DNA of 62,277 nt from an uncultured Methanosarcinales archaeon (GTDB lineage: Archaea; Nanobdellota; Nanobdellia; Woesearchaeales; JACJVW01). The stretch covers positions 1 to 62,277 of the forward strand of contig CAYYOI010000002.1 of assembly GCA_964473285.1 (NCBI GenBank). Reading direction: 5' to 3'. A program made the position numbers and the translations under genes. The notes beneath the pieces are model-generated. The model was not told the origin of the DNA, ran no database searches, and worked only from the letters and a program-made list of their open reading frames with translations. Of this stretch, positions 76-29,017 are shown in pieces; the first letter of the stretch is position 1; each line of letters begins with the position of its first letter.

Positions 76-92
76 GGAGAATGGATTTCCCT

Positions 93-212: not shown

Positions 213-230
213 TTTTCTCAAAATGGTAAG

Positions 231-242
231 TTTTTTATATAT
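231..242 (+). promoter_or_regulatory. putative TATA box for archaellin-like gene
   Basis: ttttttatatat lies about 25-30 nt upstream of ATG 264, implying a leaderless or near-leaderless mRNA. Confidence 0.4.
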
Positions 243-263
243 CTTTAGTTGATGTCCTTAGAT

Positions 264-2164: not shown

Positions 2165-2264
2165 GGATTGGAGGGACCTGGTTTAATATATAAAGGCTCT
2201 GGACATTTTCACTTGATGGAGTAATACTCAAATTTAAATAGAAGATAAACCTAAAATAAATCCT

Positions 2265-3332: not shown

Positions 3333-3965
3333 TTCAGAGAGGACATGTATGATATTATCTGCCATGTGAAAAGAGTCAGATGGAAATGTATTGGTTATTG
3401 CTATTGCCTGCATCCCTGCTTTTCTTGCAGCAATGATTCCATTGACGGAGTCCTCAACTACCATGCACTGGGAATAGTCAATGCCAATGTCCTCGGCAGC
3501 TCTCATGAAAAGGTCTGGAGCAGGCTTACTGTTTTGTACCATTTCTGAATGGACTGCTGCATCAAAAAAGGACAGGAGATTGAAACGGGAATCTATATAC
3601 TCAAGCATTTCCTTTCGGGCAGAGGTTGCAAGGGCAAGCCTGTATCTTTTCTGAAGGCGGGATAGGACAAATTTGACCCTGGGAAACAACCTGATATCAT
3701 CCTGGTATTGGGCTTCATAAGCAATCTTTTCTGATATGATATTCTCAGGCGTATCCTGAAGACCGAAGTCCCCTATCAGCCGCATTGCTATCTGCTTTGA
3801 GGATGTGCCGTTGTATTTCTTGAATTCTTCCTTATTGAAGGAGAGATTGCGTTTATCAAAGATTGATTTCCATATTTTCATATGGACTGGCATTGAATCA
3901 ACCAAAACACCGTCCATGTCAAAGATTATTGCCTGCATACAGATTCTTTGGGTGAAGTCATTCAT
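3315..3965 (-). CDS. HAD-superfamily hydrolase (beta-phosphoglucomutase-like)
   Basis: IIFDMDGVLVDS (motif I DxDG), LATSA (motif II), K at NSKPAPD (motif III), VEDSVNG (motif IV). Confidence 0.8.
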   Translation of the reverse strand: MNDFTQRICMQAIIFDMDGVLVDSMPVHMKIWKSIFDKRNLSFNKEEFKKYNGTSSKQIAMRLIGDFGLQDTPENIISEKIAYEAQYQDDIRLFPRVKFVLSRLQKRYRLALATSARKEMLEYIDSRFNLLSFFDAAVHSEMVQNSKPAPDLFMRAAEDIGIDYSQCMVVEDSVNGIIAARKAGMQAIAITNTFPSDSFHMADNIIHVLSELESIE

Positions 3966-3970
3966 AAAAG

Positions 3971-8000: not shown

Positions 8001-8021
8001 GAAATCATGGGTAACTGAGGG

Positions 8022-8029
8022 ATTTAAAA
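8022..8029 (-). promoter_or_regulatory. putative TATA box for glmM-glmU-glmS operon
   Basis: Minus-strand ttttaaat about 29 nt upstream of ATG 8000. Confidence 0.4.
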
Positions 8030-8255
8030 CCTTAATTAAGAAGAACATGATACTAAAAAAGAGAAAAAGGAACAAAATAACTATTAGGACTGAATCAGAG
8101 GGCAAAATAAGGATTTAAAAGGAAAATAAGACCAAAATAAGATTACTGCACCAAAAGAAAGGGAAAACCAGTTAACATACTGAAGTTATCAGGCAGAAAA
8201 AAAAGATAATATTATCATAAATTTTATAATAATCAGCCTCACTTTTCCTGATAAA

Positions 8256-15398: not shown

Positions 15399-16115
15399 AT
15401 GGCAAACTTCTGGAAGATAGTCAATGATGTGATAGGCAAGTCTGACATAATCCTTGAAGTATTGGATGCAAGGTTCCCTCAGGAATCACGCAACCCTGAG
15501 ATCGAGCAAAAGGTCAGGGAAGGCAAGCAACTAATATATGTGATAAACAAGTGCGAACTGATGCCAAAGGAACACTTGGAGGCATGGAAACGCAAGCTAA
15601 AGCCTTCGGTTTTCGTATCATGCAATAAGCATTATGGGTTCACTAAGCTAAGGGATAAGATACTCAGGTTTACAGAGGAAAAAAAGGTGGTTGTTGGTGT
15701 TGTTGGTTATCCTAACACAGGGAAGAGTTCTGTCATTAATTCACTCAAAGGGAAAAAGGCTGCACAGACAAGTTCGGTATCAGGTTACACTAAAGGTATC
15801 CAACTTATCAGAGTGGATAACAGGATAATGATTCTTGATACACCAGGAGTCATCCCTTTCCAGGAGAAGGATGAGATAAAGCATGCTCTTTTCGGAACAA
15901 AAAGCATGAGCCAGGTGAAAGACCCAGAAGGGGTTGCTCATGTTCTGCTTGAAAACCAGGGTGAGATATTAAAGGAGAGGTTTGGCATAACAGGAGAGGA
16001 TGCTGAAGAATTACTTCTTTCCCTGACAAGGCACTGGAACATGCTCAAGAAAGGAAGTGAACCTGATACAGAACGGGCCGCAAGAAAGCTTATCGATCTG
16101 TGGCAGAAGGGCTAG
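15399..16115 (+). CDS. circularly permuted GTPase (YlqF/RbgA/Nug-type ribosome biogenesis GTPase)
   Basis: Motif order is G4 NKCEL, then G1 GYPNTGKSS, then G3 DTPG. ATG 15399 is preferred over the track TTG 15378. Confidence 0.75.
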   Translation: MANFWKIVNDVIGKSDIILEVLDARFPQESRNPEIEQKVREGKQLIYVINKCELMPKEHLEAWKRKLKPSVFVSCNKHYGFTKLRDKILRFTEEKKVVVGVVGYPNTGKSSVINSLKGKKAAQTSSVSGYTKGIQLIRVDNRIMILDTPGVIPFQEKDEIKHALFGTKSMSQVKDPEGVAHVLLENQGEILKERFGITGEDAEELLLSLTRHWNMLKKGSEPDTERAARKLIDLWQKG

Positions 16116-16118
16116 TTT

Positions 16119-16952
16119 CTATAAGTTATCTACCACGAAGATACGGGTCTCTTCAATCAACTCATCAAAAGTGATTTGTGCTGAAAGATGTTCTCTTAGT
16201 AATTCTTCGATATAAGCTATCAATTCATCATAGAATTCTGAATCGCTTTTTTCAAGAAAGGACACTGATACAGAGGCTTTGTCACTGTCAAGCGCAAGCA
16301 CAACAAGAATCTGCTTATCTGATGTCTTCATCACTTTATCAAATGAATAATCTGCAATGGATGCGAGGGATAAGGATGTTGATTCCAGCTCTGAAAAATC
16401 CAGAACAAGGAACCTTAATTCAATATCCTGAAGTGCTTCCAATTCGTTTTCCTGGTTAGAATCTCTTCCCATTATATAGGAGTCTTTATAGATACCAGGA
16501 AGGGTGTTTGAAAGGAAATTCTGATTTGCCTGCAAAAGTTCCTGCTGGTACGAATCATTGAAAAGCTTGTCCATGTAATACTTATCTACTGTATTTGGGT
16601 CTTCTGAGTATTTTTTTTCGAAAGGATCAAAATTTACTGGGTTTATAGCCTTGCCATTCTTTTCAAGATTATGCCACACGAATTCCTTGTAGGTGTAGCC
16701 GCGTATTGCGCCATACTGTTGCCAGGCTTTCCAGAAGCTAATATCTTGGTGGGCAGTGTTTGTGTGTTCCGGAAGATCAAGGCATTGGGGTTTTCCATAA
16801 TCAAAAGAAGGAAGCTCATCAATTTCGACCTCGCTATCCAGGAAAAGGTCGTAATAGATATCCAGCTTATTGTCTGACAGTTGGGGCACATAAAGAGATG
16901 AACAATCTGCAAACGCAAAAGGTATTAGGAGGAATAGCAAAAGGTATCTCAT
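16119..16952 (-). CDS. secreted hypothetical protein (last gene of pilin/hydrolase operon)
   Basis: Signal-peptide-like MRYLLLFLLIPFAFADC. Overlaps the upstream ORF by 4 nt. Confidence 0.6.
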   Translation of the reverse strand: MRYLLLFLLIPFAFADCSSLYVPQLSDNKLDIYYDLFLDSEVEIDELPSFDYGKPQCLDLPEHTNTAHQDISFWKAWQQYGAIRGYTYKEFVWHNLEKNGKAINPVNFDPFEKKYSEDPNTVDKYYMDKLFNDSYQQELLQANQNFLSNTLPGIYKDSYIMGRDSNQENELEALQDIELRFLVLDFSELESTSLSLASIADYSFDKVMKTSDKQILVVLALDSDKASVSVSFLEKSDSEFYDELIAYIEELLREHLSAQITFDELIEETRIFVVDNL

Positions 16953-18589
16953 TGTATCAGACCTCCGGTCTTTGTTATGACATCAAACCTTGTGGTGAGG
17001 TGATCATCCTGGTTACCTAAAGTGATTGGGCCAAAATCTGACCTGAAGGTAAGTGCGAACTTATGAATAAGGTCACCATCATCAACACAGAAACGATAAG
17101 TCCTTTTTGGATGGGTTATGCATACATCCTCTTTTTCAACAACTGATAAACTTTTATTTACTAAAAGATATTTATCATAAGTATGTATTTGAGTACTTGG
17201 CTTGTATTCTTTTCCTTGTTTAAAATTATCTCCAAATAGGTAAAGACGGGGTTCACTATTAACAATCTGAATCTCCTCTCTTGTAAAAGTTTGGGGGAAA
17301 TTAATATATTCGTTTGCATCTCTAAGAGGGATATCAAGCGTTGTATCAAACGCATCTCCGCCAATTTGGCCTTCTATTACTGTAACATCATCTTTTTCAC
17401 TGAGTATGAACTTTCCGGGGATATCAGGAAGGGGGCAAGTGCATGATTGTCCAGGTGTATCAAGGCACTGCTGTATTGATTCGACCATCTGATAGAACTT
17501 TCCTTCATTACCAGAAAGGCATTCATCACCGTATTTCCAGTCATGGTGGAAACTGCTGGTTTTTGATTCGATGCAGAAATCAAGATAGTCTGATGTCTTG
17601 CATGTCTCTGCAAGGATCTTTGCCTCATCGCGAACTGTATGAAAGATGTTAAGATCATAAGGAATATCAATACTGAAACCAATACCAAAGGAAAGGGTTG
17701 TCCTTAGGTTCCTTGAAGGTGGAGGCATGTTAAAGCGTTGCATTGCTTTTTCAACATAGTCCTCAGTGTCCTTAAGGTCATGTCCTTGATGAATGTCCTT
17801 GAAGACCTCTTGAAACACAAGAATCCTGCCGATATAGAGGGAGCGTCCTGTGGTGTCATCAATGTGCTGGATATAGGATTCTATACCTGGCCCATACTTT
17901 TCCTTAAGTTCTGCCACTGTTCCAGCACCCATGTTATATGCCAGGATAGCGTCAACCATCACATCACCTGAAAACTCTTTCTCAAGAGACTGAAGGTTGC
18001 GGTTAAATAATTTAAGGGATAATCGCACTGCCAGCTCATCGTTATCAATTATTTCTTTTGGTGGTCCAGTGAAACCCATATCAAGTGCAACAGGATACAT
18101 TATCTGGGTGAGGCCATAACTGCAGGAGAACTGGTGGAATTCTTTTGTCCCATGACTTTCATCAAAACCACACCTATCCCCTCCTTTATAGGGACCATTC
18201 TCATCAGGTTTACAATAGATTGGGTCATCACAGTGTTCTTCACATAAATCATAAAATGATTTTCTCTCCTTACATAATTCACTTTCCTCATTTTTCTGAC
18301 AAGCGACAAAAGGCTCTTCATAATTATCCTCGCATCTGATAGGAGAGTCTGAAAAATAATCGCTTTCAACATAGAAAAGGCCTGCATATAGATAGGGTTC
18401 AGGAAGACCCATATCTTCTGCCTCTGAGATTATCATATCCAATGTGTCTTTGTCATCAAAGTTTTTCATTTTGTCAATCCGTGAGGAAACATCCTCTATG
18501 AGCCTTTTTTTTGCCTTTTCTTGCTCTGTTGCCATTGCTGAACCTAGTAAAATAAGAAGCAGTATCCCGATTAATATTTTGGTTTTCAT
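16949..18589 (-). CDS. secreted protein with SLT (GH23 lytic transglycosylase)-like domain
   Basis: Signal peptide MKTKILIGILLLILLGSAMA. SLT hallmarks FYVES (E75-S76), YGLTQIM (159-165) and AYNMGAGTV (217-225), with a Cys-rich insert between the ES and GLxQ motifs. Confidence 0.65.
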   Translation of the reverse strand: MKTKILIGILLLILLGSAMATEQEKAKKRLIEDVSSRIDKMKNFDDKDTLDMIISEAEDMGLPEPYLYAGLFYVESDYFSDSPIRCEDNYEEPFVACQKNEESELCKERKSFYDLCEEHCDDPIYCKPDENGPYKGGDRCGFDESHGTKEFHQFSCSYGLTQIMYPVALDMGFTGPPKEIIDNDELAVRLSLKLFNRNLQSLEKEFSGDVMVDAILAYNMGAGTVAELKEKYGPGIESYIQHIDDTTGRSLYIGRILVFQEVFKDIHQGHDLKDTEDYVEKAMQRFNMPPPSRNLRTTLSFGIGFSIDIPYDLNIFHTVRDEAKILAETCKTSDYLDFCIESKTSSFHHDWKYGDECLSGNEGKFYQMVESIQQCLDTPGQSCTCPLPDIPGKFILSEKDDVTVIEGQIGGDAFDTTLDIPLRDANEYINFPQTFTREEIQIVNSEPRLYLFGDNFKQGKEYKPSTQIHTYDKYLLVNKSLSVVEKEDVCITHPKRTYRFCVDDGDLIHKFALTFRSDFGPITLGNQDDHLTTRFDVITKTGGLIQ

Positions 18590-19710
18590 GGGCTCAGGTG
18601 TATATGGTCTTTGTGGCTATCTATTAAGGAAGCATATTGGGCTTGTGTGCAAGGTGTTTTTCCCTTGTAACACTTATCATTATCAGGACCATAAAATTCT
18701 CCATCCAAGTTCTTCTTATAATAATCAGCTATGAGTTCATAGCAATCTCCAAAAGTTTCTCCCCTGCCATCATAATACTCGTATGCGTATACAATCTTAC
18801 CATCCTTGTCCCTGCATCTGGAGATATCGGCAGCATTTCCAATGTAATGGTTGCTTGTATCTGAATGACTACCGGTGGAGATTGAAGAGATATAAAGTCT
18901 TGCCTTGCAATCCTCATGGCCTTTACATTCCTGGTCATGCCATGCCTCTCCAAGGTCCAGAAGAACGCTGGCTAACTCTTTGGTCATGGCATTACCATCC
19001 TTTGCATCTGAAGCGATTTCAAGATGATTTGCAAGGGGGTCCTTGATCGAGTAAAGGGTGCTGAAATCCTCTTTTGGGAATAAGGCGCATGCACCAGGAG
19101 TGCTTCGTTCCTCGTTTGTACAAGAAGGTGAATGCAATGCAGTGGCTTGATCATAATCAACAATAGGGGGTGAGACCATACCACCATAACTTTGGACTGA
19201 TTTTGTAGTGATACCTTTTCTCAGGGTTACACCAGGGCCTACGATATCAAACCTGGTGGTGTCAGAAATATCAAGATTTGCAAAAGAGAGGGAATCAATT
19301 CCTGCTTCCTCCAGGACATCAAAGAAAAGCTCATTGAAGTAGGATTCTGTTGCAGAGTTAGGAGACTCTGGTGCGCACTCTTCAAAGGATTTATCCTCTG
19401 TCTGCCAGAGCTGGTATCCCTGGTATTGTCCACAATCTTTGCCTTTTGCCTGGGTGCCCTGAGAAGGTTTGACCCATCCTTTGCTTGCGGCAAGCTCTAA
19501 GGCCTGCTTGAGGAAGGATTGGGTATGCATCTGCAGGAATGCCTCTTTGTCCGCTGCTTCCTGGTATTGCTGATAAATTGAGAATTGCTGGTGACCGAGG
19601 TTATAATCTATTTTCTCATCCTTATTGCTTGCAACAGAGTAGATCTGAACCATTATTATAATTACAACTAGGACAATTCCTACATGAAATATCATCCCTT
19701 TCTTGTTCAT
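18586..19710 (-). CDS. pilin-like-anchored protein with C-terminal LAS/M15-type zinc peptidase motifs
   Basis: N-terminus MNKKG|MIFHVGIVLVVIIIMVQIY. The C-terminus has SNHYIGNAAD (H-x6-D) and HKDHIHLS (HxH), as in VanY/M15 peptidoglycan peptidases. Confidence 0.5.
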   Translation of the reverse strand: MNKKGMIFHVGIVLVVIIIMVQIYSVASNKDEKIDYNLGHQQFSIYQQYQEAADKEAFLQMHTQSFLKQALELAASKGWVKPSQGTQAKGKDCGQYQGYQLWQTEDKSFEECAPESPNSATESYFNELFFDVLEEAGIDSLSFANLDISDTTRFDIVGPGVTLRKGITTKSVQSYGGMVSPPIVDYDQATALHSPSCTNEERSTPGACALFPKEDFSTLYSIKDPLANHLEIASDAKDGNAMTKELASVLLDLGEAWHDQECKGHEDCKARLYISSISTGSHSDTSNHYIGNAADISRCRDKDGKIVYAYEYYDGRGETFGDCYELIADYYKKNLDGEFYGPDNDKCYKGKTPCTQAQYASLIDSHKDHIHLSP

Positions 19711-20303
19711 TTTTTTACATACTCTACTCTTAGAGTTACATTTATCGGTGTTCCATCATTTAACAAGATGGTTTTTGAGACTATATCTGGTGTCGAAAAA
19801 TAATTTTTGCATGACCCTTTTCCTCTAAACACATTTTCTGAAAATATCCTGCCTTTTGGTTTTTGGTGCCTTCCAAACTCGTCCGTAGGATTATTCGGAT
19901 CATTACTGGTATGCTTCTCCTTATTAAAATAGATTATATAGGTTGCGATGCAGTCAATGAATTCCTTGTCTTCTGTAACTACGTCCGTAAAGGTATGTTC
20001 AGAAAAATCCAGGATATCCTGGACTTTGCCCTTAAAGGAAGTGATATTTTGCTTGCACGCCTTCCCAGCGGAACATGCTTCATAAGTTTTTGAGTAATGG
20101 TCCCTGATATTCATGCCATCAACTTCTGTCCTGAGGATATTATTCAGCATCATGTCCATTGTAAGATGCCTGGATTCTTCTTCTATGTTAAACTCTATTG
20201 GGGTGTTTGGGCTATAAAGCAAAAAGAAGATGATGAAAACAACTATAAGTGCGATAACTGACATAACAAGTACTGCTGATTCTGAGACTTGTCCTTTCTT
20301 CAT
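19707..20303 (-). CDS. pilin-like hypothetical protein
   Basis: MKKG|QVSESAVLVMSVIALIVVFIIFFLLY is a class III-type signal. ATGA-type overlaps on both sides. Confidence 0.6.
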   Translation of the reverse strand: MKKGQVSESAVLVMSVIALIVVFIIFFLLYSPNTPIEFNIEEESRHLTMDMMLNNILRTEVDGMNIRDHYSKTYEACSAGKACKQNITSFKGKVQDILDFSEHTFTDVVTEDKEFIDCIATYIIYFNKEKHTSNDPNNPTDEFGRHQKPKGRIFSENVFRGKGSCKNYFSTPDIVSKTILLNDGTPINVTLRVEYVKK

Positions 20304-20809
20304 TGTTTCACCACTGTTATAGCCAATCTTCCTGGGTCTAGTGAACCTTTATCATTTACGAGTACATAAATGGATTGCCTGACTTTTGTTACAGATCCAG
20401 GACCTTTCCCACTATATGATATAGGCTCAAGTTTCATATAGGCCTTCTTATTATAATAAATTGTGTCTGTAGAATCTTTTTTTATTAGCTCAATCTTTGC
20501 AGCTATGTGGTCCTCGAAATCACTGCTATAGTTTATTGCAGATTCATCAAACCTGCTAAAATCTATTATTCCTGGCTGCATCTTGTCAAGGACAGAATCA
20601 TAATGGGAGATTCCATGGGGTGTATAAAGAAGGCGATGGATGAAAAGGGTGGCTTCAACCTCTCTAGTATCCACTTTTTCATTTACTGTTGAATTCAGAA
20701 TCATGACCATGGCTACACCTATGATAAGTATCATGAAGAGTTTCCATATGTAATATACTCCTGTAAGGGAGACACTACCCTTTGTAAAATTCAGTAATCC
20801 CATCTGCAA
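20300..20809 (-). CDS. membrane-anchored hypothetical protein
   Basis: FTKG|SVSLTG followed by a TM helix. Start uncertain: ATG 20809 or 20803 overlaps the upstream gene; ATG 20734 is an alternative. Confidence 0.5.
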   Translation of the reverse strand: MQMGLLNFTKGSVSLTGVYYIWKLFMILIIGVAMVMILNSTVNEKVDTREVEATLFIHRLLYTPHGISHYDSVLDKMQPGIIDFSRFDESAINYSSDFEDHIAAKIELIKKDSTDTIYYNKKAYMKLEPISYSGKGPGSVTKVRQSIYVLVNDKGSLDPGRLAITVVKQ

Positions 20810-21677
20810 TTGTCTGCCAGATATCTTTTATCTTTTTGTTTTCCTTTAGTATCGAATCATCATTGAGAACATTACCTATTTCAAGACTTACAAATGAAGC
20901 ACCAGGTTTTCTCTCAACCCTGACCTGGTTTGCTCCCAATTTCAGGTTTGCCTGTTCAAATCTTTCCTTTAGTATACAGGAGAGTTTCCTTGCCCTTGAA
21001 TCTGTCTGATCATAGGAGATTATTATCGGAGTTACTGTCTTTTGACCCATTCCTGCCTTCATCTCAATCAAAAGATCATAGTTTTGAAAATCTTGCTTGT
21101 CCTGTGTGGGATCCTCAGAAGTAAGTTTCACATTGGCATTAAGATAACCTTTGACATTATCTGCCAGGACCCACATGATATCCTCATCAACACCTTTCTC
21201 TGCTTTGTGAGGGTCAAGCACAATGAGATTTTTCTTCCAATCAGGATCTTTTGTATCAAGGGATTTGCTACAGGTAGAGGCTCCTGTATCCTCTGCGATA
21301 TATACCCTGTTCTTATTCTCCAGGTAAATCCTGGAGGGGTTCTCCATATCCTCTGCCCTGAAAGGAATAAGATCATTTTTTGCAAAGGGATAGTATATCT
21401 TGGAGTCATCCTCTACTGTCACACGGTCTTTGAAAGAGAAGGAAAACTTTGAAAGGTCAACCTTGCTAGGATCATAAAGGTAACTTATCTCATAGGGAGA
21501 TGCAGAGATTGTATCTACCAGAAGAGCAAGGTCTTTTGAAAGGTAGGTCTTCTCATGATAAGTGCTATCCTCATAAGCATTGATTCTTAACAGCATGAAA
21601 ACCAAAAGTGCAGCGATCAAGATCAGGTCAAGAATATAAACCAACATAGCTTCTTGGTTTCCAGTATCGCTGTCCAT
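20775..21677 (-). CDS. membrane-anchored protein with Amidase_3 (MurNAc-L-Ala amidase)-like C-terminal domain
   Basis: N-terminal TM helix. Residues 150-298 (IVLDPHKAEKG..DEDIMWVLADNV..DLLIEMKAG..SFVSLEIGNVLNDD..IADGITEFY) follow the Amidase_3 pattern (xDxGH, E, SxHxN, vExGf, iA.gI..y), but the second His position is Lys. Confidence 0.4.
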   Translation of the reverse strand: MDSDTGNQEAMLVYILDLILIAALLVFMLLRINAYEDSTYHEKTYLSKDLALLVDTISASPYEISYLYDPSKVDLSKFSFSFKDRVTVEDDSKIYYPFAKNDLIPFRAEDMENPSRIYLENKNRVYIAEDTGASTCSKSLDTKDPDWKKNLIVLDPHKAEKGVDEDIMWVLADNVKGYLNANVKLTSEDPTQDKQDFQNYDLLIEMKAGMGQKTVTPIIISYDQTDSRARKLSCILKERFEQANLKLGANQVRVERKPGASFVSLEIGNVLNDDSILKENKKIKDIWQTIADGITEFYKG

Positions 21678-21714
21678 GAGAGAGGCTTGGAAGACTGAGT
21701 TTATATGATTTTTG

Positions 21715-23274
21715 CTATTGGCAACCTGAGTCTGTGCATTTTCCTACAATACAGGCTTCTATCTCTTTATTATCTGGACCATGCTCACATATGCACAAGG
21801 TTTGCACATCCATTTGCTTAATGCACATAGTAAGGTCACATATCTCCTGAAGTGAATCATCATATTCATTTTCGAACGTCTTACATTTTTGATATAGTTC
21901 TTCATAGGTATGTTTTTTATCCTCATCTTTATAGAGTTCGTAGAGTTTTTTGATACCTTCATCAGTCAGAAACCTTAATTCTTTTGCATACCCATAAGCC
22001 TGAGGTTTAATGTATTTATCTCCCTCATCTGACCACCAGCCCTCATAATATTTTTCCTTTTCTTTCTCTAAGGAATCCACCTGCTTTTCAGAAAGTCCAA
22101 ACAAGCCCTTGAACATAATTATGTCAGCATGATTCAATGATGATTTAGACATTGCCTCAATTATAATATCAATATCATCTTTTGTAAGATCATTGATAGT
22201 ATCAAGATCGGTTCCAAAATTCAACCAAAAGTCCTTCCAATTGTTTTCCCAGACAAAAGGCCTGAAATGGTCATGGATGAAGGTCTCTTCTGATCTGGAG
22301 GTTTCACTAAGAGCCTTTTCCAATTCTTCTTCATGTCCTTTCTGTACCTTTACCTTTTCATTCAATTCTTTGATCTCTTGGGTAAGCTTTTTTTTCTTGC
22401 CCTTTTCATTGTAGAGTTCTTTGCGGTATTCAATGAAATAATCATTGAAATCATTAGTCAAGTCAAGAGGTGCCAAAAGGATATAGGTAGTGCCCTGGTA
22501 TTCCATCTTTTCCAGATAAAGATTTCGATTGCCAAAAAAAGCCTCAACCTTTTTTCCGTTGTTACCCAGGTTTTGAGAGCCATCCCACCAACCATATCTT
22601 TGAAAGCCTAACAAAAAAAGATAGCCATAAGAACCAGCCCATTCATCTGAGAAATCAGCAAGGGAAATATCTTTATTTTTACCCTGATTCTGGGGAGGAA
22701 AACTCTGAGTCAGTTCATCAAATCCAATATTCTCTTCCTTCTTAAGAATATCCAGTAATCCATCAGTCTGGTCGCCAAACCTATCAAAAGTGTAGCCTGC
22801 TAATATTATTTCTTCTTTAAATACCCGGCAGTTAACTATATCTTCTTTCTTGATAAGACATATACAAGCACTATTACCGCATTCAACAGGCCTTTCAACT
22901 TTTTTATTATTGATGAAATTCCAATCATCACGAAAGCTGTTTTTTATTGGTGCTATCATCTGCTTGTCTGTCGTATATCTTAACTCAAAGGTGTCGGCAA
23001 AAAATTGGGTAGTAGGGTCATGATTCTTATCAAAGCCAATGATTGAATAACCTTCTTCAAGGGTTATGGGGATTACATTCTGGCGGAAAGTGTCAGTTGA
23101 ATCGATCAACCCATTGATATTTTGAGTAAGGACATTGAAGCTTTTTTCTGTCGGTCCATCTACACCAAAAACATTGGAGAGAAAACCAAAAATCGGTGTG
23201 AAGAGAACGAATATCAGGATTGCGGCCAATGTAAGGCCAACAACCTCACTCATTACCATCTGGGCCTTAGCCAT
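21715..23274 (-). CDS. large pilin-like hypothetical protein
   Basis: MAKA|QMVMSEVVGLTLAAILIFVLF class III-like N-terminus, 519 aa, central K/E coiled coil, Cys-rich C-terminus (CICEHG..CIVGKCTDSGC). Confidence 0.6.
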   Translation of the reverse strand: MAKAQMVMSEVVGLTLAAILIFVLFTPIFGFLSNVFGVDGPTEKSFNVLTQNINGLIDSTDTFRQNVIPITLEEGYSIIGFDKNHDPTTQFFADTFELRYTTDKQMIAPIKNSFRDDWNFINNKKVERPVECGNSACICLIKKEDIVNCRVFKEEIILAGYTFDRFGDQTDGLLDILKKEENIGFDELTQSFPPQNQGKNKDISLADFSDEWAGSYGYLFLLGFQRYGWWDGSQNLGNNGKKVEAFFGNRNLYLEKMEYQGTTYILLAPLDLTNDFNDYFIEYRKELYNEKGKKKKLTQEIKELNEKVKVQKGHEEELEKALSETSRSEETFIHDHFRPFVWENNWKDFWLNFGTDLDTINDLTKDDIDIIIEAMSKSSLNHADIIMFKGLFGLSEKQVDSLEKEKEKYYEGWWSDEGDKYIKPQAYGYAKELRFLTDEGIKKLYELYKDEDKKHTYEELYQKCKTFENEYDDSLQEICDLTMCIKQMDVQTLCICEHGPDNKEIEACIVGKCTDSGCQ

Positions 23275-23734
23275 CGCAATCCCCTGCTATGAATCTAAAG
23301 GTATTGGAGTTAGTTTCATCAGTACACTCGCTTCCTTCAAGAACATAATCCTCACAAGAGCTATCCATACCATCTTTACCAACGCCGCATTGAGTTTCTC
23401 TTCCTTCTAACCTATGCCTGCATGTTACCTTGTCTGGATCATCTCTTGTCTCTTCTGTTTCACAGGCATCAGCCATACCATCACCATCAGTGTCAATTGT
23501 ACTATCTCCATCAATACAGGGATCACATGTATCTGGATAGCCGTCCCCATCACAATCTGGAAGGTCATTGACCATTATCTCTGATTCCTTGCAACCATCC
23601 AATTGATTCTTGACCTTGATAGGATCCAGAACAGCAGAAGAAGTGTCTAGCACCTTACTTTTTATCATAGATCCTGCGAAAAAAATGATTACTATAGCCA
23701 AAATGAGCCCAACAATCTGTCCAAAACCCATCAC
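23267..23734 (-). CDS. pilin-like protein with thrombospondin type-3-like Ca-binding Asp/Cys repeats
   Basis: MMGFG|QIVGLILAIVIIFFAG N-terminus, then DCDGDGYPDTCDPCIDGDSTIDTDGDGMADACE (DxDxDGxxDxxDxC-type repeats). Confidence 0.55.
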   Translation of the reverse strand: MMGFGQIVGLILAIVIIFFAGSMIKSKVLDTSSAVLDPIKVKNQLDGCKESEIMVNDLPDCDGDGYPDTCDPCIDGDSTIDTDGDGMADACETEETRDDPDKVTCRHRLEGRETQCGVGKDGMDSSCEDYVLEGSECTDETNSNTFRFIAGDCDG

Positions 23735-23735
23735 A

Positions 23736-23993
23736 TCACCCTATGGCTTTGCAGCACTTGATTATGTCTCCTTTCTTCTCTGTATCGTCGCCAGTATATT
23801 TCCCTGGTACCAATAACTGACCAGGACCACAGTCGCTTGAGGTTTGCTCTTCAGGGCATTCATAAGAAGTGGAAGTGTCAAAAAGACCAAATCGATCATT
23901 CATTATATACAAGGAGAACGCCAATATGACAAGCATTATGATCATCCCTACAATCATCTGCATAGAAAGACCTACACCTTTCTTTGTATTCAT
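23736..23993 (-). CDS. Cys-rich mini-pilin (paralog E)
   Basis: ATG 23993 forms an ATGA overlap with the upstream stop. MNTKKG|VGLSMQMIVGMIIMLVILAF; 4 Cys; ends ..GDIIKCCKAIG. Confidence 0.7.
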   Translation of the reverse strand: MNTKKGVGLSMQMIVGMIIMLVILAFSLYIMNDRFGLFDTSTSYECPEEQTSSDCGPGQLLVPGKYTGDDTEKKGDIIKCCKAIG

Positions 23994-24250
23994 TCTACAC
24001 AACACCTTACATAAGCTCCTTCATCATGTCCATCATAGGGTTCTTTCAGTTGGATAATCTCTATTTTTCCCTCGCATTCACCATCTATGGCTTTTTCATA
24101 ATCCTCGCTGGAACAGTCTTTGGAGTCTGTAGCTTCTGTAAATACCCTTGCCTTGTCACCAAATATGAAAAGGATTACGACAAGCACGGCCATAGCTACA
24201 ATAGCTATGATTATGAAATTGATTGAAATAGATATTCCTTTCTTCATCAA
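23990..24250 (-). CDS. Cys-rich mini-pilin (paralog D)
   Basis: MMKKG|ISISINFIIIAIVAMAVLVVILFIF. The N-terminal ~30 aa are near-identical to paralog C. Ends ..YVRCCVE. Confidence 0.7.
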   Translation of the reverse strand: MMKKGISISINFIIIAIVAMAVLVVILFIFGDKARVFTEATDSKDCSSEDYEKAIDGECEGKIEIIQLKEPYDGHDEGAYVRCCVE

Positions 24251-24531
24251 TAATCACCCATTGGTACACAACATTTGACAACATCGCCTTTCTCTGCAGT
24301 TTCTTCTAATTCTTTGCATTCTGTTCTCAAAGGGCGACTGTTTATCACCTGCCCTTCCGGGCAATCGTTTTCTTCTGCAGCCTTAGCATCAGGACACTCG
24401 CAGTATTTGGTGGTAGCACTTGTAAACACCTGCGCCTTGTTATTGAATATGAAAAGAATGACAACCAAAACAGATATAGCAATGATTGCAATGATGATGA
24501 AATTGATTGAAATGGATATTCCTTTCTTCAT
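24247..24531 (-). CDS. Cys-rich mini-pilin (paralog C)
   Basis: MKKG|ISISINFIIIAIIAISVLVVILFIF; 6 Cys; ends ..GDVVKCCVPMGDY. Confidence 0.7.
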   Translation of the reverse strand: MKKGISISINFIIIAIIAISVLVVILFIFNNKAQVFTSATTKYCECPDAKAAEENDCPEGQVINSRPLRTECKELEETAEKGDVVKCCVPMGDY

Positions 24532-24569
24532 GAGAGACCTTAAAATTCTGCCATTAATAAAATTTACTG

Positions 24570-25025
24570 TTAATGGCTATGATGGTTGCATGGACCATTG
24601 CAGGGTCTGACGCAATGCTGGGAAAAGATACAGTCAAAATCTTTGAAATCACAGCATGTCCAATCTTCTTTATCTGCTTCAAGATTCTTTGTGATCTCAG
24701 GATAATCTTCAAGTTTCTTTATATATTCCTCTGCCTTGTTTTCTTTCTCGAGCGCTAGATAGGAGAGGGCAATGTAGAGGTTGGCCTCATGATATATATC
24801 TCCTGATAATTCATCCATTCTTTTAAATATCTGGATAGCTTCTGAATATTCTGCTTTAGAGTAAAGTTTCTTGCCTTCTTTCATTAAATCAAGATATTTT
24901 TCCTGTGTCTCTGAGATCTGCGGATCTATACCAAAGGTGAATTTATTAAATAGCCAGCTTCCTGCAGCAACAATCAATATTCCGATTACAAGCCACATGA
25001 GCATATTGTATGTCTGTCCTTTCAT
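24570..25025 (-). CDS. pilin-like-anchored TPR-like protein
   Basis: ATG 25025 gives MKG|QTYNMLMWLVIGILIVAAGSWLF (the track uses TTG 25034). The helical-repeat segment AEYSEAIQIFKRM..ANLYIALSYLALEKENKAEEYI is TPR-like. Cys-rich tail. Confidence 0.55.
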   Translation of the reverse strand: MKGQTYNMLMWLVIGILIVAAGSWLFNKFTFGIDPQISETQEKYLDLMKEGKKLYSKAEYSEAIQIFKRMDELSGDIYHEANLYIALSYLALEKENKAEEYIKKLEDYPEITKNLEADKEDWTCCDFKDFDCIFSQHCVRPCNGPCNHHSH

Positions 25026-25026
25026 T

Positions 25027-25167
25027 CTACCCAAAACTGAATATGCTTGTTCCTACCTGCATAAGGATAGGAGTGTATTTCCAGACCAAATAAACTGTGA
25101 ATGCAATCCCCAGCAATACAAAAAAAATCTTTACTATGTTATCTGTCAGAATATTTCCCTTGTCCAT
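25027..25167 (-). CDS. unannotated 46-aa single-TM micro-ORF
   Basis: Hand translation: MDKGNILTDNIVKIFFVLLGIAFTVYLVWKYTPILMQVGTSIFSFG*. The ATG directly follows the upstream TGA (25168-25170), and the stop is 1 nt before the next ATG. Below the track size cutoff. Confidence 0.5.
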   Translation of the reverse strand: MDKGNILTDNIVKIFFVLLGIAFTVYLVWKYTPILMQVGTSIFSFG

Positions 25168-26031
25168 TCAATCACCTTGCTTTGATGGAAAGTAATCACA
25201 TTGCAACTCTTTAAAGCTTTCGCCTGTATGCTCACGAAGAAGGACCATTGCCAAATGTGCCTCTTCACCTCCTAAATAAGTTTTAATCGCACTGGTAGCC
25301 CCTGCTATGAGACCTACTGCACCTGAAATTGCAATTGTAACTAATCCAACCCCTCCTGTAACAACTGTAACCAATACATAGCCGGTTACTGCGGCTGCAC
25401 CTGCGCCTGTACCTATCCCTATAATTGCAGTAGTTTGCTTTTTGCCAAGGGTGTTTATCCAGTTTTCAATCGTACTTGTCCCTTTGGCATAGACAAACAC
25501 GATAGAATAATCCTTGGCTGTATCTATTACCTTATCATCGATCTGTTTCGCATTTTGATTTTCAATGTATTTATGAGCGAGGGAACTCTCATAATTCATG
25601 AGATAATCCATATAAGTTATGGTATCATTGTATTTAGTCTGGGCGAGATAGGTTGAAAATCCATCTATCTCTTTTTCCTCTTTGAAGCTTAAAATGGAAC
25701 ATACAGAGCAATAGACTTGCCTTTTTTCAAAGATCTCCGGCTTTCCTCTCAAAAAATTATCCCAACAGGTGACCATCTCATCAGCAATGGCTTTTTTTAT
25801 GTCTGAATCCTTTTTAGCATCAATCTCCACTTCTTTGGTTGGGCACTTGAGTTCCTGTGGCTCAAGCTGGGCGCCTTTTATGTGCATGAGTTCCATGGTC
25901 TTGACACTGGAGCGGCACATCTTATCCTCATGGTTCAATGAATCAGAGGCAAATATTGTGTTGTAGAAGCCAAATATGACTAGTAGGACCATCACGATTG
26001 CAAACACTTTATGTATAAGTTCAAAATACAT
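25168..26031 (-). CDS. membrane protein, paralog of 26035..26760 with Gly/Ala-rich TM segment
   Basis: N-terminal TM helix. A Cys-patterned domain is shared with the upstream ORF. Contains TAIIGIGTGAGAAAVTGYVLVTVVTGGVGLVTIAISGAVGLIAGA. Confidence 0.6.
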   Translation of the reverse strand: MYFELIHKVFAIVMVLLVIFGFYNTIFASDSLNHEDKMCRSSVKTMELMHIKGAQLEPQELKCPTKEVEIDAKKDSDIKKAIADEMVTCWDNFLRGKPEIFEKRQVYCSVCSILSFKEEKEIDGFSTYLAQTKYNDTITYMDYLMNYESSLAHKYIENQNAKQIDDKVIDTAKDYSIVFVYAKGTSTIENWINTLGKKQTTAIIGIGTGAGAAAVTGYVLVTVVTGGVGLVTIAISGAVGLIAGATSAIKTYLGGEEAHLAMVLLREHTGESFKELQCDYFPSKQGD

Positions 26032-26034
26032 TTT

Positions 26035-26760
26035 TCAGTTAGCCAGGAATGTACAGCCATAATCGTCTAATTCTTTAGGAAGGATAAAGTCAATAATAGC
26101 ATAATTCTCATTATCTAAAGCCCACCCGGTAATGAAATTTCCTACTCTGCCAACAGTATTTTCTTTATCCAACCAACGGCCGGTTCCATCATGTACATAC
26201 AATAGATAATATTCCTTATCAAGATCTATTTCTTTCTTATAATCAAAATCTTCTGAGTTCGCTGATTTGGTGAGATAGTCTGCATAAGTTGTACAGTTAT
26301 CACACATGCGAGTTGATTTAAGATATTCTCCAAAATCGATCTTATCTACCTCATTTGCAAGGGATTTCTCGAACTTGATCTCAGCACATATGAGGCATGC
26401 CCTGGTACCCTCAAATCTTTCCTGCCGGAAGGGATTTATTTTTCCTTCTCCAGTCATGTAGTTACAAATACGGGCCTCTTCTGCCAGAAGATGAGATATA
26501 TCAGTTTTTATAACATCCCCTTTCTTTTCGACATCACTTTTTTCAATCTCCAGCTCATAGCGTGGACAGTCAAAATCAATTGCTATCTTGTTCCCTGCCA
26601 ATTTTGTGTTTGCAGCTGCAAGAATGCTGAACTTGCATAACTCAATCTGCTCCTTTCGGCTTGCTTCACCAGTAAATCCATTGATAAAAGCAAACATGAC
26701 AACGACTGTGAGAAGAATTGCAATCATCTTTACCATCTGAGAATTGACCTGAGCTTTCAT
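26035..26760 (-). CDS. pilin-like hypothetical protein, paralog of 25168..26031
   Basis: MKA|QVNSQMVKMIAILLTVVVMFAF. Shared pattern C..CP..E(V/L)EI..C..ACLICAEIKFEK..DYL. Confidence 0.6.
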   Translation of the reverse strand: MKAQVNSQMVKMIAILLTVVVMFAFINGFTGEASRKEQIELCKFSILAAANTKLAGNKIAIDFDCPRYELEIEKSDVEKKGDVIKTDISHLLAEEARICNYMTGEGKINPFRQERFEGTRACLICAEIKFEKSLANEVDKIDFGEYLKSTRMCDNCTTYADYLTKSANSEDFDYKKEIDLDKEYYLLYVHDGTGRWLDKENTVGRVGNFITGWALDNENYAIIDFILPKELDDYGCTFLAN

Positions 26761-26858
26761 AGTCCCATAAAAATCTTGACAGCAATGGTCAAAACAATCG
26801 CCATGAGCATCGCCATTGCGATCATCATTATTGTCTGGCTCTTAAGCTGCCCTTTCAT
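26757..26858 (-). CDS. unannotated 33-aa pilin-stub micro-ORF
   Basis: Hand translation: MKG|QLKSQTIMMIAMAMLMAIVLTIAVKIFMGL*. Its stop TGA overlaps the ATG of the downstream gene (ctATGA). It consists only of a class III-like leader plus hydrophobic helix. Confidence 0.5.
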   Translation of the reverse strand: MKGQLKSQTIMMIAMAMLMAIVLTIAVKIFMGL

Positions 26859-26890
26859 AGAGTTATACCGAAAAATAGAATATATAAATG

Positions 26891-27142
26891 TTACGACCCT
26901 GCACTATAGACAGGTATACAGCAGACATTAGCACAATTAGTGTTTGAAGAGTCTCCTACTTTTGCCTCGTTGGAATAGCAGCCATCTTCCCTGCACGTTC
27001 CGCCTTGATTTTCACAGGAACGTAATTCTGTGCCGAATATCTGGCTTCTACCGGAAAAGATTATCGCAATCACTACCAGCACAAGCAAGGCAATCGCAGC
27101 AATTATAATAGTATTTAAAGAAAGACTTTGTGCCTTCCTCAT
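26891..27142 (-). CDS. Cys-rich mini-pilin (paralog B)
   Basis: MRKA|QSLSLNTIIIAAIALLVLVVIAIIF; 6 Cys; ..CANVCCIPVYSAGS. Confidence 0.7.
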   Translation of the reverse strand: MRKAQSLSLNTIIIAAIALLVLVVIAIIFSGRSQIFGTELRSCENQGGTCREDGCYSNEAKVGDSSNTNCANVCCIPVYSAGS

Positions 27143-27414
27143 ATCTCCTCACCAGGCATGCAACACTTCATGTCTTCATTTACAGACCCATCGTTATTCA
27201 AGCATACCGCTGTTCCAATATTTCTTTCGATCATACCGCCTGGACAGTCACTGCCATCTGGAACACAACTTCCTCCAAGATTTTCGCAACTCTTGGAGTC
27301 ACTGACAAATATGCTGCTACGTGACATAAATACAACAGAAAGAATAACAAGTACAAGCAATGCCAAAGCTGCGATGATAATAACATTCATTGATAATCCT
27401 TGACCTTTTCGCAT
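27139..27414 (-). CDS. Cys-rich mini-pilin (paralog A), first gene of operon
   Basis: ATG 27414 gives MRKG|QGLSMNVIIIAALALLVLVILSVVF, with the SD-like GAGGTG 6 nt upstream (the track uses GTG 27423). 6 Cys; ..DMKCCMPGEEI. Confidence 0.7.
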   Translation of the reverse strand: MRKGQGLSMNVIIIAALALLVLVILSVVFMSRSSIFVSDSKSCENLGGSCVPDGSDCPGGMIERNIGTAVCLNNDGSVNEDMKCCMPGEEI

Positions 27415-27450
27415 GAGATTCACCTCTACTCTAGCCTGAGAGCAAGTAGT

Positions 27451-27458
27451 ATTTAAAA
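27451..27458 (-). promoter_or_regulatory. putative TATA box of pilin/hydrolase operon
   Basis: Minus-strand ttttaaat between the Lrp stop (27459) and pilin A, about 40 nt upstream of ATG 27414, leaving a short SD-containing leader. Confidence 0.35.
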
Positions 27459-27920
27459 TTATCTATGCAGATCCAGGAGTTTTAAGTCACTCATGAAGCA
27501 CTCACGCTTGAGATCATCGATTATATAATGGACATCCACTTTTTCTATGGTAAATTTCTCTTCGACCTTCTCCAGAAATTCCTCAAACTCCTTCAGATGG
27601 CGAAAAACCCCTTCACAAAGGAAGTCGAATCCATTATTGATACGATAAAGGGAATTTACATGGAGATGGGAGAGCATGTATTCGCGAAGCGATTCCCTAC
27701 AGGATTTGTTCACCTTGAGCATGATATTTGCCCGTAAGCTATAACCCAGCTCGTTGAAATCAATTAGAGAGGTGTGCTTTTTTATGAGGCCGCCTCCGTT
27801 ATGGCGCAGACGCTCATAAATTGTAGAGACTGGAATCTTTAGCTTCTTACTCATATTGGTAAGTGATTCTCGGGCATTGCTTCGCAAGCACGTTATTATC
27901 TGCATATCCTTTTGGTTCAT
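27459..27920 (-). CDS. Lrp/AsnC-family transcriptional regulator
   Basis: MNQKDMQIITCLRSNARESLTNMSKKLKIPVSTIYERLRH (HTH) plus a C-terminal RAM-like domain. ATG 27920 is preceded by GGAGGTG; the track start is TTG 27941. Confidence 0.8.
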   Translation of the reverse strand: MNQKDMQIITCLRSNARESLTNMSKKLKIPVSTIYERLRHNGGGLIKKHTSLIDFNELGYSLRANIMLKVNKSCRESLREYMLSHLHVNSLYRINNGFDFLCEGVFRHLKEFEEFLEKVEEKFTIEKVDVHYIIDDLKRECFMSDLKLLDLHR

Positions 27921-28087: not shown

Positions 28088-29017
28088 ATGCAAAGGAAAG
28101 TAATCCAGCTAGCGGGGAAGACACTGGTTGTGAGCCTGCCGAACAAATGGGTAAAGCAGTTCGGGATACAAAAAGGGGATGAGCTGGATATCCTTGAAGA
28201 AGATAACCAACTGGTGATCCGTAGCGGTATTAGGAGAGAAGAAAGTAAGAATATATTTATTGATATATCAGATAGTAAAGAGAGAATTATAAGGTGGACT
28301 CTCTCTGCACTTCATAAGAAAGGATATGATGAAATACAAGTTAAATTTGAACATATGGATAAACTACGAATACTTGAGGACCTAATACGGAACCGATTTA
28401 TTGGGTTTGCTATTGTTCATCAAACAGAATCACTCTGCATAATAAGAAACATAACGAAAGAAGCTGAGATGGAGTTTGATTCTATTTTAAGAAGAGGCTT
28501 CTTGGTCACCGAATCCCTGGCAGAAAGCACTTTGGATCTTATGAAAAGAAAGAAATTCAAAGAGATGTCTGAACTAGTTCAACTTGAAAAAACGAATAAT
28601 CAATTGACAAATTTTTGCGAAAGAATAATCAATAAAGGAAAATATCCTGTTGCTAAAGATAGCCATTTTATGTATGTCATTGCCTGGAATCTAGAGAAAG
28701 TAGCGGATGATTACAAGTATATATGTGAATACCTTAGCAGATTAGATAATCCTGTAATTGATCAACCTACAGTTGAAATATTTGAAAGAATAAACCACTA
28801 TTTCAAAGAATTTTATTATCTATTCTATAAATTTAAGATAGAAGAACTTAATGAACTGGATAAGAAAAGAAAGATAATCATTAAAGATATCATTGAAGTA
28901 TGTGAACATGCCAACAAAGAAAACACAGTAATCTTAAACTATCTTCTCAGTAATATCTACAAAATTGTTGATTTCCATGCCTCTACAATTGCGTTGAATA
29001 GTGAGCCTGAAGATTGA
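28088..29017 (+). CDS. AbrB/SpoVT-domain plus PhoU-like regulator
   Basis: N-terminus VIQLAGKTLVVSLPNKWVKQFGIQKGDELDI is an AbrB-type swapped-hairpin motif. The helical C-terminal region has PhoU-like repeats, an architecture common in archaea. Confidence 0.55.
   Translation: MQRKVIQLAGKTLVVSLPNKWVKQFGIQKGDELDILEEDNQLVIRSGIRREESKNIFIDISDSKERIIRWTLSALHKKGYDEIQVKFEHMDKLRILEDLIRNRFIGFAIVHQTESLCIIRNITKEAEMEFDSILRRGFLVTESLAESTLDLMKRKKFKEMSELVQLEKTNNQLTNFCERIINKGKYPVAKDSHFMYVIAWNLEKVADDYKYICEYLSRLDNPVIDQPTVEIFERINHYFKEFYYLFYKFKIEELNELDKKRKIIIKDIIEVCEHANKENTVILNYLLSNIYKIVDFHASTIALNSEPED

Follow-up and report, generated by a model that had tools for sequence, protein, structure and literature searches.

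What might an archaeon without murein of its own build from a long row of pilin-like genes, some of which are joined to domains resembling murein hydrolases? The question is raised by a stretch of DNA of 62,277 nucleotides (nt), referred to here as the window, which is contig CAYYOI010000002.1 of GenBank assembly GCA_964473285.1, deposited as an uncultured Methanosarcinales archaeon and placed in the Woesearchaeales by GTDB. On its minus strand lies an operon of 18 open reading frames (ORFs), numbered w01 to w18, most of which begin with a signature like that of class III (prepilin-type) signals. The reading favoured here, with a confidence slightly better than even, is that these genes specify the building blocks of a surface structure resembling a type IV filament, one whose motor is encoded elsewhere and whose minor or modular subunits carry murein-directed domains that are used against bacterial walls. 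The regulator, the leader and the genes of the operon are listed below, with a slash in each N-terminal motif at the putative cleavage point (aa, amino acids).

27459..27920 (-): Lrp/AsnC-type regulator gene, directly upstream of the operon, 44-nt gap to w01
27415..27458 (-): intergenic leader, read from the sequence: TATA-like TTTTAAAT, then GAGGTG, a putative ribosome-binding site, 7 nt before the w01 ATG at 27414
27139..27414 (-): w01, small Cys-rich pilin-like protein, 91 aa, MRKG/QGLSMNVIIIAA...; candidate major subunit
26891..27142 (-): w02, small Cys-rich pilin-like paralogue, 83 aa, MRKA/QSLS...; orthologues in related loci L006, L004 and L010
26757..26858 (-): w03, 33 aa, signal plus hydrophobic helix only, MKG/QLKS...; also called as a gene on a Logan contig
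26035..26760 (-): w04, 241 aa, pilin-signal protein, MKA/QVNS..., Cys-rich; paralogue of w05
25168..26031 (-): w05, 287-aa membrane protein with an N-terminal transmembrane (TM) anchor without the K-G motif, a w04-like domain and a C-terminal Gly/Ala-rich hydrophobic hairpin
25027..25167 (-): w06, 46-aa protein with a single TM segment, MDKG/NILT...
24570..25025 (-): w07, 151 aa, pilin-signal protein, MKG/QTYN..., TPR-like region and Cys-rich tail; orthologue in L006
24247..24531 (-): w08, small Cys-rich pilin-like paralogue, 94 aa, MKKG/ISIS...
23990..24247 (-): w09, small Cys-rich pilin-like paralogue, 85 aa, MKKG/ISIS...; 52% identity to w08
23736..23993 (-): w10, small Cys-rich pilin-like paralogue, 85 aa, MNTKKG/VGLS...
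23267..23731 (-): w11, 154 aa, N-terminally anchored, Asp-rich DxDxDG repeats, no basic leader
21715..23274 (-): w12, large pilin-signal protein of 519 aa, MAKA/QMVM...
20775..21677 (-): w13, 300 aa, N-terminally anchored, Amidase_3-like C-terminal domain
20300..20809 (-): w14, about 160-169 aa, pilin-signal protein, ..TKG/SVSL..; the most widely conserved single-copy marker of the cluster
19707..20303 (-): w15, 198 aa, pilin-signal protein, MKKG/QVSE...
18586..19710 (-): w16, 374 aa, pilin-type signal MNKKG/MIFH..., carrier module of about 130 aa and a divergent LAS-type (VanY/M15-like) putative zinc peptidase domain
16949..18589 (-): w17, 546 aa, secreted, Sec-like signal, probable SLT-like (GH23) domain broken by a Cys-rich insert
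16119..16952 (-): w18, 277 aa, secreted, Sec-like signal; last gene of the operon, orthologues in L006, L004 and L007

The N-terminal signature was examined with a pattern of our own, [KR][GA] immediately followed by some 19-22 hydrophobic aa. It was found in 13 of the 18 operon ORFs (w01, w02, w03, w04, w06, w07, w08, w09, w10, w12, w14, w15 and w16) and in one of the 55 other gene-like ORFs of the window (Fisher p = 1.3e-9); the hydropathy maxima of the operon ORFs are 2.3-3.6 over 19 residues and begin 5-24 residues from the start. The exceptions are w05, which has a plain TM anchor; w17 and w18, which carry Sec-like signals; w13, whose copy in the window is without the motif and whose orthologues have K-G before the TM segment; and w11, where the basic residue is absent (GFG/Q) and the K-G motif is absent from the L006 and L004 orthologues as well. 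The original prediction for this DNA had counted such a leader in at least 12 ORFs, a count that is upheld by the pattern test apart from w11, for which it finds no support.

The five small proteins w01, w02, w08, w09 and w10, of 83-94 aa, are paralogues of one alignable family, in which w02 is 41% identical to w01. The family comprises at least 438 clusters, all of them unnamed 'hypothetical' proteins and, where labelled, from Woesearchaeota or Nanoarchaeota. Among 83 aligned members, picked by a similarity that is dominated by this same N-terminal helix, Lys is found at -2 in 82, Ala or Gly at -1 in 82, Gln at +1 in 69, Ser at +4 in 77 and Asn at +6 in 80, the near-invariant consensus being K-[AG]/Q-G-L-S-x-N-x-I-I-I-A-A; mean column entropy in these members is 0.93 bits over residues 8-33 versus 2.47 bits over the rest. 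A helix that is better conserved than the head would be expected from packing in a filament core, as in type IV pilins, and is the opposite of what a Sec signal would give. As far as sequences can tell, the 83-member signature and this conservation pattern favour what had been predicted, namely N-termini of class III (prepilin)-like character and not generic anchors. An AlphaFold2 model of w01 with a predicted local distance difference test score (pLDDT) of 77.5 consists of a 32-residue helix (9-40) and a small, disulfide-rich beta head of 3-4 strands. The heads of the small proteins are knobs with 6-7 Cys and an invariant CC at the end.

Murein-related domains would be carried by three products, a LAS/VanY-like domain by w16, an Amidase_3-like domain by w13 and an SLT-like domain by the Sec-exported w17. 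In w16, the motifs S-x-H-x-x-G-x-A-x-D and H-x-x-H-x-H are invariant in 4 orthologues; they agree with the zinc-ligand motifs H-x(3-6)-D and H-x-H of LAS peptidases (VanY/M15, MepA and the hedgehog N-domain). An AlphaFold model made from 4 sequences reaches pLDDT values of 65-82 in the C-terminal domain and is poor elsewhere; its top Foldseek matches are all LAS folds (hedgehog N-domain, probability 0.96, E 0.058; MepA; a viral hedgehog-like protein, probability 0.97; E 0.05-0.06), and relatives of w16 give sub-threshold Pfam matches to VanY, M15_4 and Extensin-like_C.

When a w16 profile was run against 1.84 billion representatives, 147 proteins were found, about 10 matching over the full length and about 135 over residues 1-135 only, in proteins of 97-1311 aa. 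The shared N-terminal part, or carrier, has an N-terminal TM helix in 143 of 145 members and [KR][GAS] before it in 130 of 145, and the named members are archaeal. Pfam searches of the 97 members of at least 300 aa placed the following domains on the carrier: VanY in 16, Peptidase_M23 in 16, Peptidase_M15 in 13, SLT in 11, M15_3 and M15_2 in 4 each, NlpC/P60, M15_4 and CHAP in 3 each, Amidase_2 in 2, and Amidase_3, YkuD, Glucosaminidase and Phage tail lysozyme in 1 each. One pilin-type N-module is thus joined to varied functional domains across relatives, the property by which modular pilins are recognised. In locus L010 the position of w16 is taken by a protein that combines a pilin signal with a solid SLT domain (4.5e-16). 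This domain architecture across relatives appears to be the strongest evidence for w16 as a murein-hydrolase carrier; since the carrier is fused to varied hydrolases, w16 can be placed in a family whose common pilin-type carrier would present interchangeable murein hydrolases.

A profile of the w13 family matched N-acetylmuramoyl-L-alanine amidases in the PDB (7rag_B at 1e-4, CwlV at 1.2e-3; range 1e-4 to 3.5e-3), and one family member matched Pfam Amidase_3 at 3e-18; w13 is related to Amidase_3 but probably catalytically degenerate in the window. In w17, E-S, GLTQ and AYNMG motifs stand around the Cys-rich insert, E-S being present in the window, L007 and L006 copies and absent from that of L004, the most distant. 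With w16 joining a pilin signal to a LAS-type domain, w13 being Amidase_3-like and w17 a borderline SLT protein, the 'enzymatic cargo' that had been foreseen for this operon appears to be there.

The next question is whether the genes belong together. Only three relatives of w16 were found in an index of 5.8 billion proteins, with 85, 54 and 34% identity. The whole block was seen to be collinear where the contigs reach (L006, L004/L003), and the flanks of the collinear loci are shared, with MazE-like and Lrp genes upstream and a GTPase, the Ski2 helicase and an ABC transporter downstream; the contig with 85% identity (L007) starts inside w15, and w15-w18 and the same downstream genes are visible on it. 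The block is therefore kept as a unit in relatives (L006, L004 and, as far as its contig extends, L007), and the case against the original prediction that no relative carries such a unit does not hold. A search with the w14 family among GTDB species genomes gave 14 loci, all in Woesearchaeota or Nanoarchaeia metagenome-assembled genomes (MAGs), and a recognisably similar cluster is present in about 20 Woesearchaeota/Nanoarchaeia genomes (the 14 GTDB loci and four further contigs among those that were ORF-mapped). In the shared architecture, a w04-like and a w05-like gene precede a short gene (about 45 aa); there are between two and five genes for small pilin-like proteins, counterparts of w12, w13, w14 and w15, and a large protein at the end. 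Nearly all products of the related clusters start with K-K-[GA] and a hydrophobic helix, many of the clusters end in the gene of an SLT protein, and one (on a JGI contig) encodes a protein with the Pfam T2SSG pseudopilin domain (PF08334).

Two side observations concern the related clusters. Loci L016, L020 and L023 are from MAGs titled 'uncultured Methanosarcinales archaeon' and bear the Woesearchaeota/Nanoarchaeia-type cluster; the taxonomy in these titles is probably mistaken. Some of the clusters are flanked by giant proteins of 1000-2450 aa (L010 at 1-4261 and 15519-20300, the JGI contig, and L027 at 1955-7072); they contain CarboxypepD_reg, Big_13 or TSP_3 repeats, or Metallophos, Glyco_hydro_3 and NAGPA domains, have no counterpart in the version of the window and probably serve as adhesins or in glycan processing.

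As had been predicted, the 18 minus-strand ORFs follow one another without interruption (16119-27414). The successive junctions from w01 to w18 are -4, 32, -4, 3, 0, 1, 38, -1, -4, 4, -8, 37, -35, -4, -4, -4 and -4 nt, the value of -35 arising because a TTG start was picked for w14. The three gaps of 32-38 nt that had been described are there and the other ORFs overlap or abut, except that one junction measures 4 nt and not 3 nt or less. The start of the operon also reads as described, with a TATA-like element, GAGGTG and ATG just 3' of the Lrp-family gene. In Pfam, the product of that gene scored just under the gathering score with the HTH_AsnC-type model (5.4e-6, 26.6 versus 27 bits) and over the cut-off with HTH_24 (4.9e-5), AsnC_trans_reg giving 2.8e-4. 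Its orthologues occupy the same position with 87% identity in L006 and 47% in L004, an Lrp/AsnC gene recurs alongside the related clusters (L017, L024, L025 and L026), and the gene is likely the regulator of the operon.

The remaining products vary in how well they are conserved. The w04 family alignment shows conserved Cys and a CxxC-like motif, and the gene is present in nearly all related clusters, with w05 as its conserved partner. The hydrophobic hairpin of w05, rich in Gly, Ala and Val, covers residues ~200-255 (TAIIGIGTGAGAAAVTGYVLVTVVTGGVGLVTIAISGAVGLIAGATSAI) and is conserved in the orthologues; the closest PDB sequence, matched without significance (E 0.42), belongs to the hydrophobic head of the pore-forming toxin SmhB. 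The idea that w05 is a novel prepilin peptidase or platform protein was rejected, the protein having only about three TM segments and no conserved Asp pair. Two ORFs are short: a homologue search with w03 (33 aa) came back empty and this is the least certain gene of the operon, and w06 (46 aa) may be compared with ORFs of 37-51 aa that follow the w05 homologue in L004, L006, L010, L014 and L023. TPR-type matches of w07 are weak in both Pfam and NCBIfam. The Asp-rich repeats of w11 (DCDGDGYPDTCD and DTDGDGMADACE), which has no Pfam match, were seen by eye to resemble thrombospondin type 3 calcium-binding repeats; faint TSP_3 / TSP3_bac matches occur in the giant neighbours of related clusters. 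In w12, the first ~160 aa are conserved and include a PxxCGxxACLCL motif, the C-terminal extension being variable; orthologues are of 329-346 aa, and related genes are found in most clusters. The w12 orthologue in L006 (6193-8008) is apparently split into a 329-aa ORF and, after in-frame stops, what the source annotates as a separate 241-aa gene, which suggests a frameshift, a pseudogene or an assembly error.

Outside the operon, the following features of the window bear on its setting:

249-1112 (+): 287-aa protein adjoining the 5S ribosomal RNA (rRNA), Pfam Arch_flagellin (PF01917) over the cut-off, E 2.2e-8
3971-8105 (-): trio of GlmS-like (SIS and GATase), GlmU-like (nucleotidyltransferase and hexapeptide) and GlmM-like (phosphoglucosamine mutase) genes, the pathway to uridine diphosphate N-acetylglucosamine
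28088-29017 (+): 309-aa protein with a MazE/AbrB-type domain at the N-terminus, upstream of the Lrp gene and conserved in L001, L004 and L006
28983-30941 (-): 652-aa APH-like kinase-fold protein, also upstream of the Lrp gene and conserved in the same three loci
46547-48037 (-): PriS-PriL, one 496-aa ORF with small and large DNA primase subunit domains
53900-54850 (+): LD-carboxypeptidase with Peptidase_S66 N and C domains, E 5e-39 and 1e-28

Also on the contig are a DSHCT helicase of the Ski2 type, a ribosomal-protein operon of archaeal kind and the 5S rRNA, and the PriS-PriL fusion is a trait known from Nanoarchaeota/DPANN. The nearest relatives carry the labels Woesearchaeota or Nanobdellota, and the window is archaeal and of DPANN type. 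LD-carboxypeptidase is an enzyme of bacterial muropeptide recycling, and the host archaeon is without murein; its presence would fit the scavenging of released peptidoglycan fragments. A prophage or lysis cassette was set aside for the operon in view of its conserved chromosomal position amid housekeeping genes, its window-like GC content and its lack of phage genes.

Is there, then, anything that could assemble a filament? Pfam scans of the window's large non-ribosomal ORFs gave no match to T2SSE/FlaI, T2SSF/FlaJ or Peptidase_A24, and no PilB-type Walker A motif was found in six-frame translations of the window and all fetched loci, which agrees with the earlier statement that PilB/FlaI, PilC/FlaJ and a prepilin peptidase are absent from the window. 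A type IV secretion system of the VirB kind was considered and rejected, there being no VirB4/VirD4-type ATPase and the small proteins having one TM helix and not two. The Arch_flagellin-like protein near the 5S rRNA begins MDKKG/ETGISVLFVII and is the sole ORF outside the operon with the signature; a search for its homologues reached no further than the two closest MAGs, with the same short contigs. Archaellins are a class III substrate family that needs a prepilin-type peptidase. Given the family match, at least one recognised class III substrate is present in this organism. It has also been documented that archaeal pilin genes can lie far from their machinery (bioRxiv 10.64898/2026.04.22.720090). 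The archaellin-like gene and these distant pilin genes indirectly soften the gap left by the missing machinery.

Several findings weigh against the favoured reading. Neither the window nor the +-10 kb around about 20 related clusters yielded an ATPase, a platform protein or a prepilin peptidase. Curated pilin, archaellin and class III models (PF04021, PF07790, PF01917, PF08334 and the TIGR pilin N-terminal models) matched none of the operon ORFs scanned, which were 16 in Pfam (E <= 0.1), that is all save w03 and w06, and 10 in NCBIfam (E <= 1); therefore membership of a known pilin family is not established, despite the pilin-like look and variation of the proteins. In the same two databases nothing significant was found for the operon ORFs save the borderline SLT of w17, w01 itself having no match, and sequence or profile searches of the PDB gave nothing significant for w04/05, w12, w14, w15, w16 and w17. 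A Foldseek search of the w01 model against the PDB found no solved pilin and nothing significant. A K/R before a TM helix is expected for ordinary anchors too under the positive-inside rule, so that the informative part of the signature is the G/A at -1 together with the conservation pattern; the latter comes from the 83 members that were picked by their helix. The enzyme assignments within this operon are weak as well: that of w16 has a Foldseek E of about 0.06 on a model of mean pLDDT 51; the window copy of w13 has no Pfam match and its GHGG and S-I-H zinc motifs are missing, so that it may bind rather than cut; and w17 scores 19.5 bits against an SLT cut-off of 21.3 bits in Pfam, where its orthologue in L006 scores 20.8 bits and that in L004 has no match.

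The composite surface filament or adhesion apparatus proposed in the original prediction is supported in part by these results. If the favoured reading is correct, the major subunits would likely be the five small Cys-rich paralogues (w01, w02, w08, w09 and w10), and w04, w07, w12 and w13-w16 would be minor or 'modular' subunits. The proteins would be inserted into the membrane, cleaved after G/A by a prepilin peptidase encoded elsewhere and assembled by an ATPase and a platform protein, also encoded elsewhere. The hydrolases would then be presented to the murein of a bacterial partner or prey, leading to attachment, a local breach of the wall and probably the release of muropeptides; the target would be foreign because the archaeon makes no murein. 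A bolder form of this proposal, which we put forward tentatively and rate at somewhat under even, is that a type IV filament dedicated to this purpose is made by Woesearchaeota and related Nanoarchaeia, its minor or tip subunits being interchangeable peptidoglycan hydrolases on a common pilin-type carrier. It would be a 'cell-wall drill' with which they dock onto and breach bacterial hosts or prey, and its enzyme heads would diversify as polymorphic effectors do.

The strongest competitor dispenses with an extended pilus and pictures an envelope-anchored lytic complex, a bindosome-like surface patch that holds hydrolases against an attached bacterium, the N-termini being cleaved or remaining as uncleaved anchors. 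It would explain why an ATPase or platform gene is never linked to the cluster and why w01 matches no solved pilin fold, it accommodates the plain membrane proteins w05 and w06, which are conserved in the cluster, and it has a precedent in the Sulfolobus bindosome, where proteins with class III signals form an envelope structure and not a long pilus (PMC3047682). However, processing and helix-helix packing are suggested by the near-invariant G/A at -1 and Q at +1 and by a helix that is exceptionally well conserved, five tiny paralogous subunits are more typical of filament building blocks, and the bindosome itself needs a dedicated ATPase and membrane protein (BasEF). We consider this complex a serious but clearly less probable explanation than the filament-like structure.

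Much further down comes a short, retractable pseudopilus like that of a type II secretion system (T2SS) or a competence system, which would export w17/w18 or take up DNA or muropeptides, the hydrolases merely clearing its path. Sets of several small and several larger pilin-like proteins do recall GspG-K and ComGC-GG, as is well established, a related cluster includes the T2SSG-domain protein, and the genome has its muropeptide-recycling LD-carboxypeptidase; but the cluster has no linked gene for a secretin, a ComEC/ComEA-like protein or an ATPase, Pfam and NCBIfam revealed no kinship with Gsp or Com pilins, and the archaeon has no outer membrane or wall of its own to cross, which makes the pseudopilus improbable. 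It is slightly more improbable still that the operon encodes a secreted antibacterial cocktail, in which the N-termini would be Sec signal peptides and defensin-like small Cys-rich peptides would act together with soluble lytic enzymes. Here one can point to the Sec-like signals of w17 and w18, to the nearest Foldseek neighbours of the w01 head, which are beta-defensins at a level that is not significant (E about 1, probability 0.47), and to one family member (P0049) that exceeds the Pfam AtDEF-like cut-off by 0.6 bits (25.6 versus 25 bits). That AtDEF-like match, however, covers the hydrophobic segment, the other defensin similarities being non-significant, and the hydrophobic stretch of 20-22 residues is the best-conserved part of the protein, is followed by no AxA-type site and is preceded by an invariant K-[AG].

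How does the proposed structure compare with known systems? Its place is with the modular pilins or the bindosome-like type IV filament (TFF) systems. Modular type IV pilins are established in bacteria, for example PilB/PilC of Streptococcus sanguinis (Raynaud et al. 2021, PMC8179133), and many occur in bacteria of the candidate phyla radiation too. They share with the present proteins a class III-type signal and a small carrier joined to a swappable module, diverse architectures and a proposed display at the tip (PMC8179133). The present proteins differ in being archaeal, in having no Glu5 and no bacterial N-methylation motif and in leaving the NCBIfam and Pfam pilin models unmatched; their carrier module forms a new family, for which there is no solved relative, and the commonest added modules (in the 97 relatives of at least 300 aa) are peptidoglycan hydrolases and not adhesins or lectins. 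The bindosome of Sulfolobus/Saccharolobus combines the small pilin-like proteins BasABC with sugar-binding proteins that carry class III signals (PMC3047682; bioRxiv 10.64898/2026.04.22.720090). Like the present system it is archaeal, has functional, non-structural proteins with class III signals next to several small pilin-like proteins, and may have its functional genes away from the ATPase and platform genes; unlike it, its cargo consists of substrate-binding proteins for ABC uptake rather than hydrolases, its BasEF genes are linked to BasABC, where here no ATPase or platform gene is linked, and there is no sequence similarity between the two.

With the Epd pili and EppA substrates of Methanococcus (archaeal TFF 'system 1'), the operon shares Gln at +1 after a K-G/A leader and several minor pilins per operon, and TFF system 1 has been reported in some DPANN (bioRxiv 10.64898/2026.04.22.720090). 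The 'EppA-type' label that had been given to the signals is suggested by Gln at +1 only, which is present in 7 of the 13 motif-bearing operon ORFs (8 of the 12 on the earlier list, which counted w11). In other respects it does not fit, as the DUF361 / Class_IIIsignal model PF04021 is unmatched, its motif being QxSxEx2L against Q-G-L-S-x-N with Asn at +6 here, the heads are tiny disulfide-rich knobs, and the epd operon, unlike this one, has assembly genes. Murein hydrolases encoded within operons of surface or secretion appendages are familiar from the lytic transglycosylases VirB1, EtgA, FlgJ and PleA, but those open the producer's own wall, whereas the producer here is without murein and the target would be another cell.

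It has been proposed that large extracellular SLT-domain proteins of Pacearchaeota and Woesearchaeota are directed at bacterial walls, and 51 lineage-specific families of unknown function, which form a block, were also reported (Castelle et al. 2021, PMC8204110; Vigneron et al. 2022, PMC9723730). Lineage and idea, namely murein-directed enzymes against bacterial walls, are the same as here; in the present operon, unlike in those accounts, the carrier-linked enzyme is the LAS peptidase and the SLT-like protein is of Sec type. Text searches of these two papers gave no mention of pili or pilins, the passages searched are silent on a pilin-type N-terminus, a shared carrier, the range of hydrolases and a conserved cluster, and hydrolases are unmentioned in the 2026 TFF preprint (bioRxiv 10.64898/2026.04.22.720090). 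In the open-access literature, neither the cluster nor the small K-[AG]-Q-G-L-S-x-N pilin family nor the family that joins the carrier to murein hydrolases was found described.

Most Woesearchaeota and Pacearchaeota are uncultured. The large SLT proteins and the lineage-specific hypothetical families, which earlier surveys had noted without bringing them into an order, are now tied into one conserved cluster with a testable logic. As the small pilin family and the carrier module are absent from current pilin models, surveys of archaeal type IV filaments will overlook both. If the favoured reading is true, the partners of these lineages would be bacteria and not archaea, the 'modular pilin' principle would extend to Archaea and to enzymatic cargo, and w14, the small K-[AG]-Q-G-L-S-x-N pilins and the w16 carrier module would serve as marker genes for the apparatus. 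Should the 'cell-wall drill' also prove true, it would provide a concrete molecular mechanism for cross-domain episymbiosis or predation, by archaea on bacteria.

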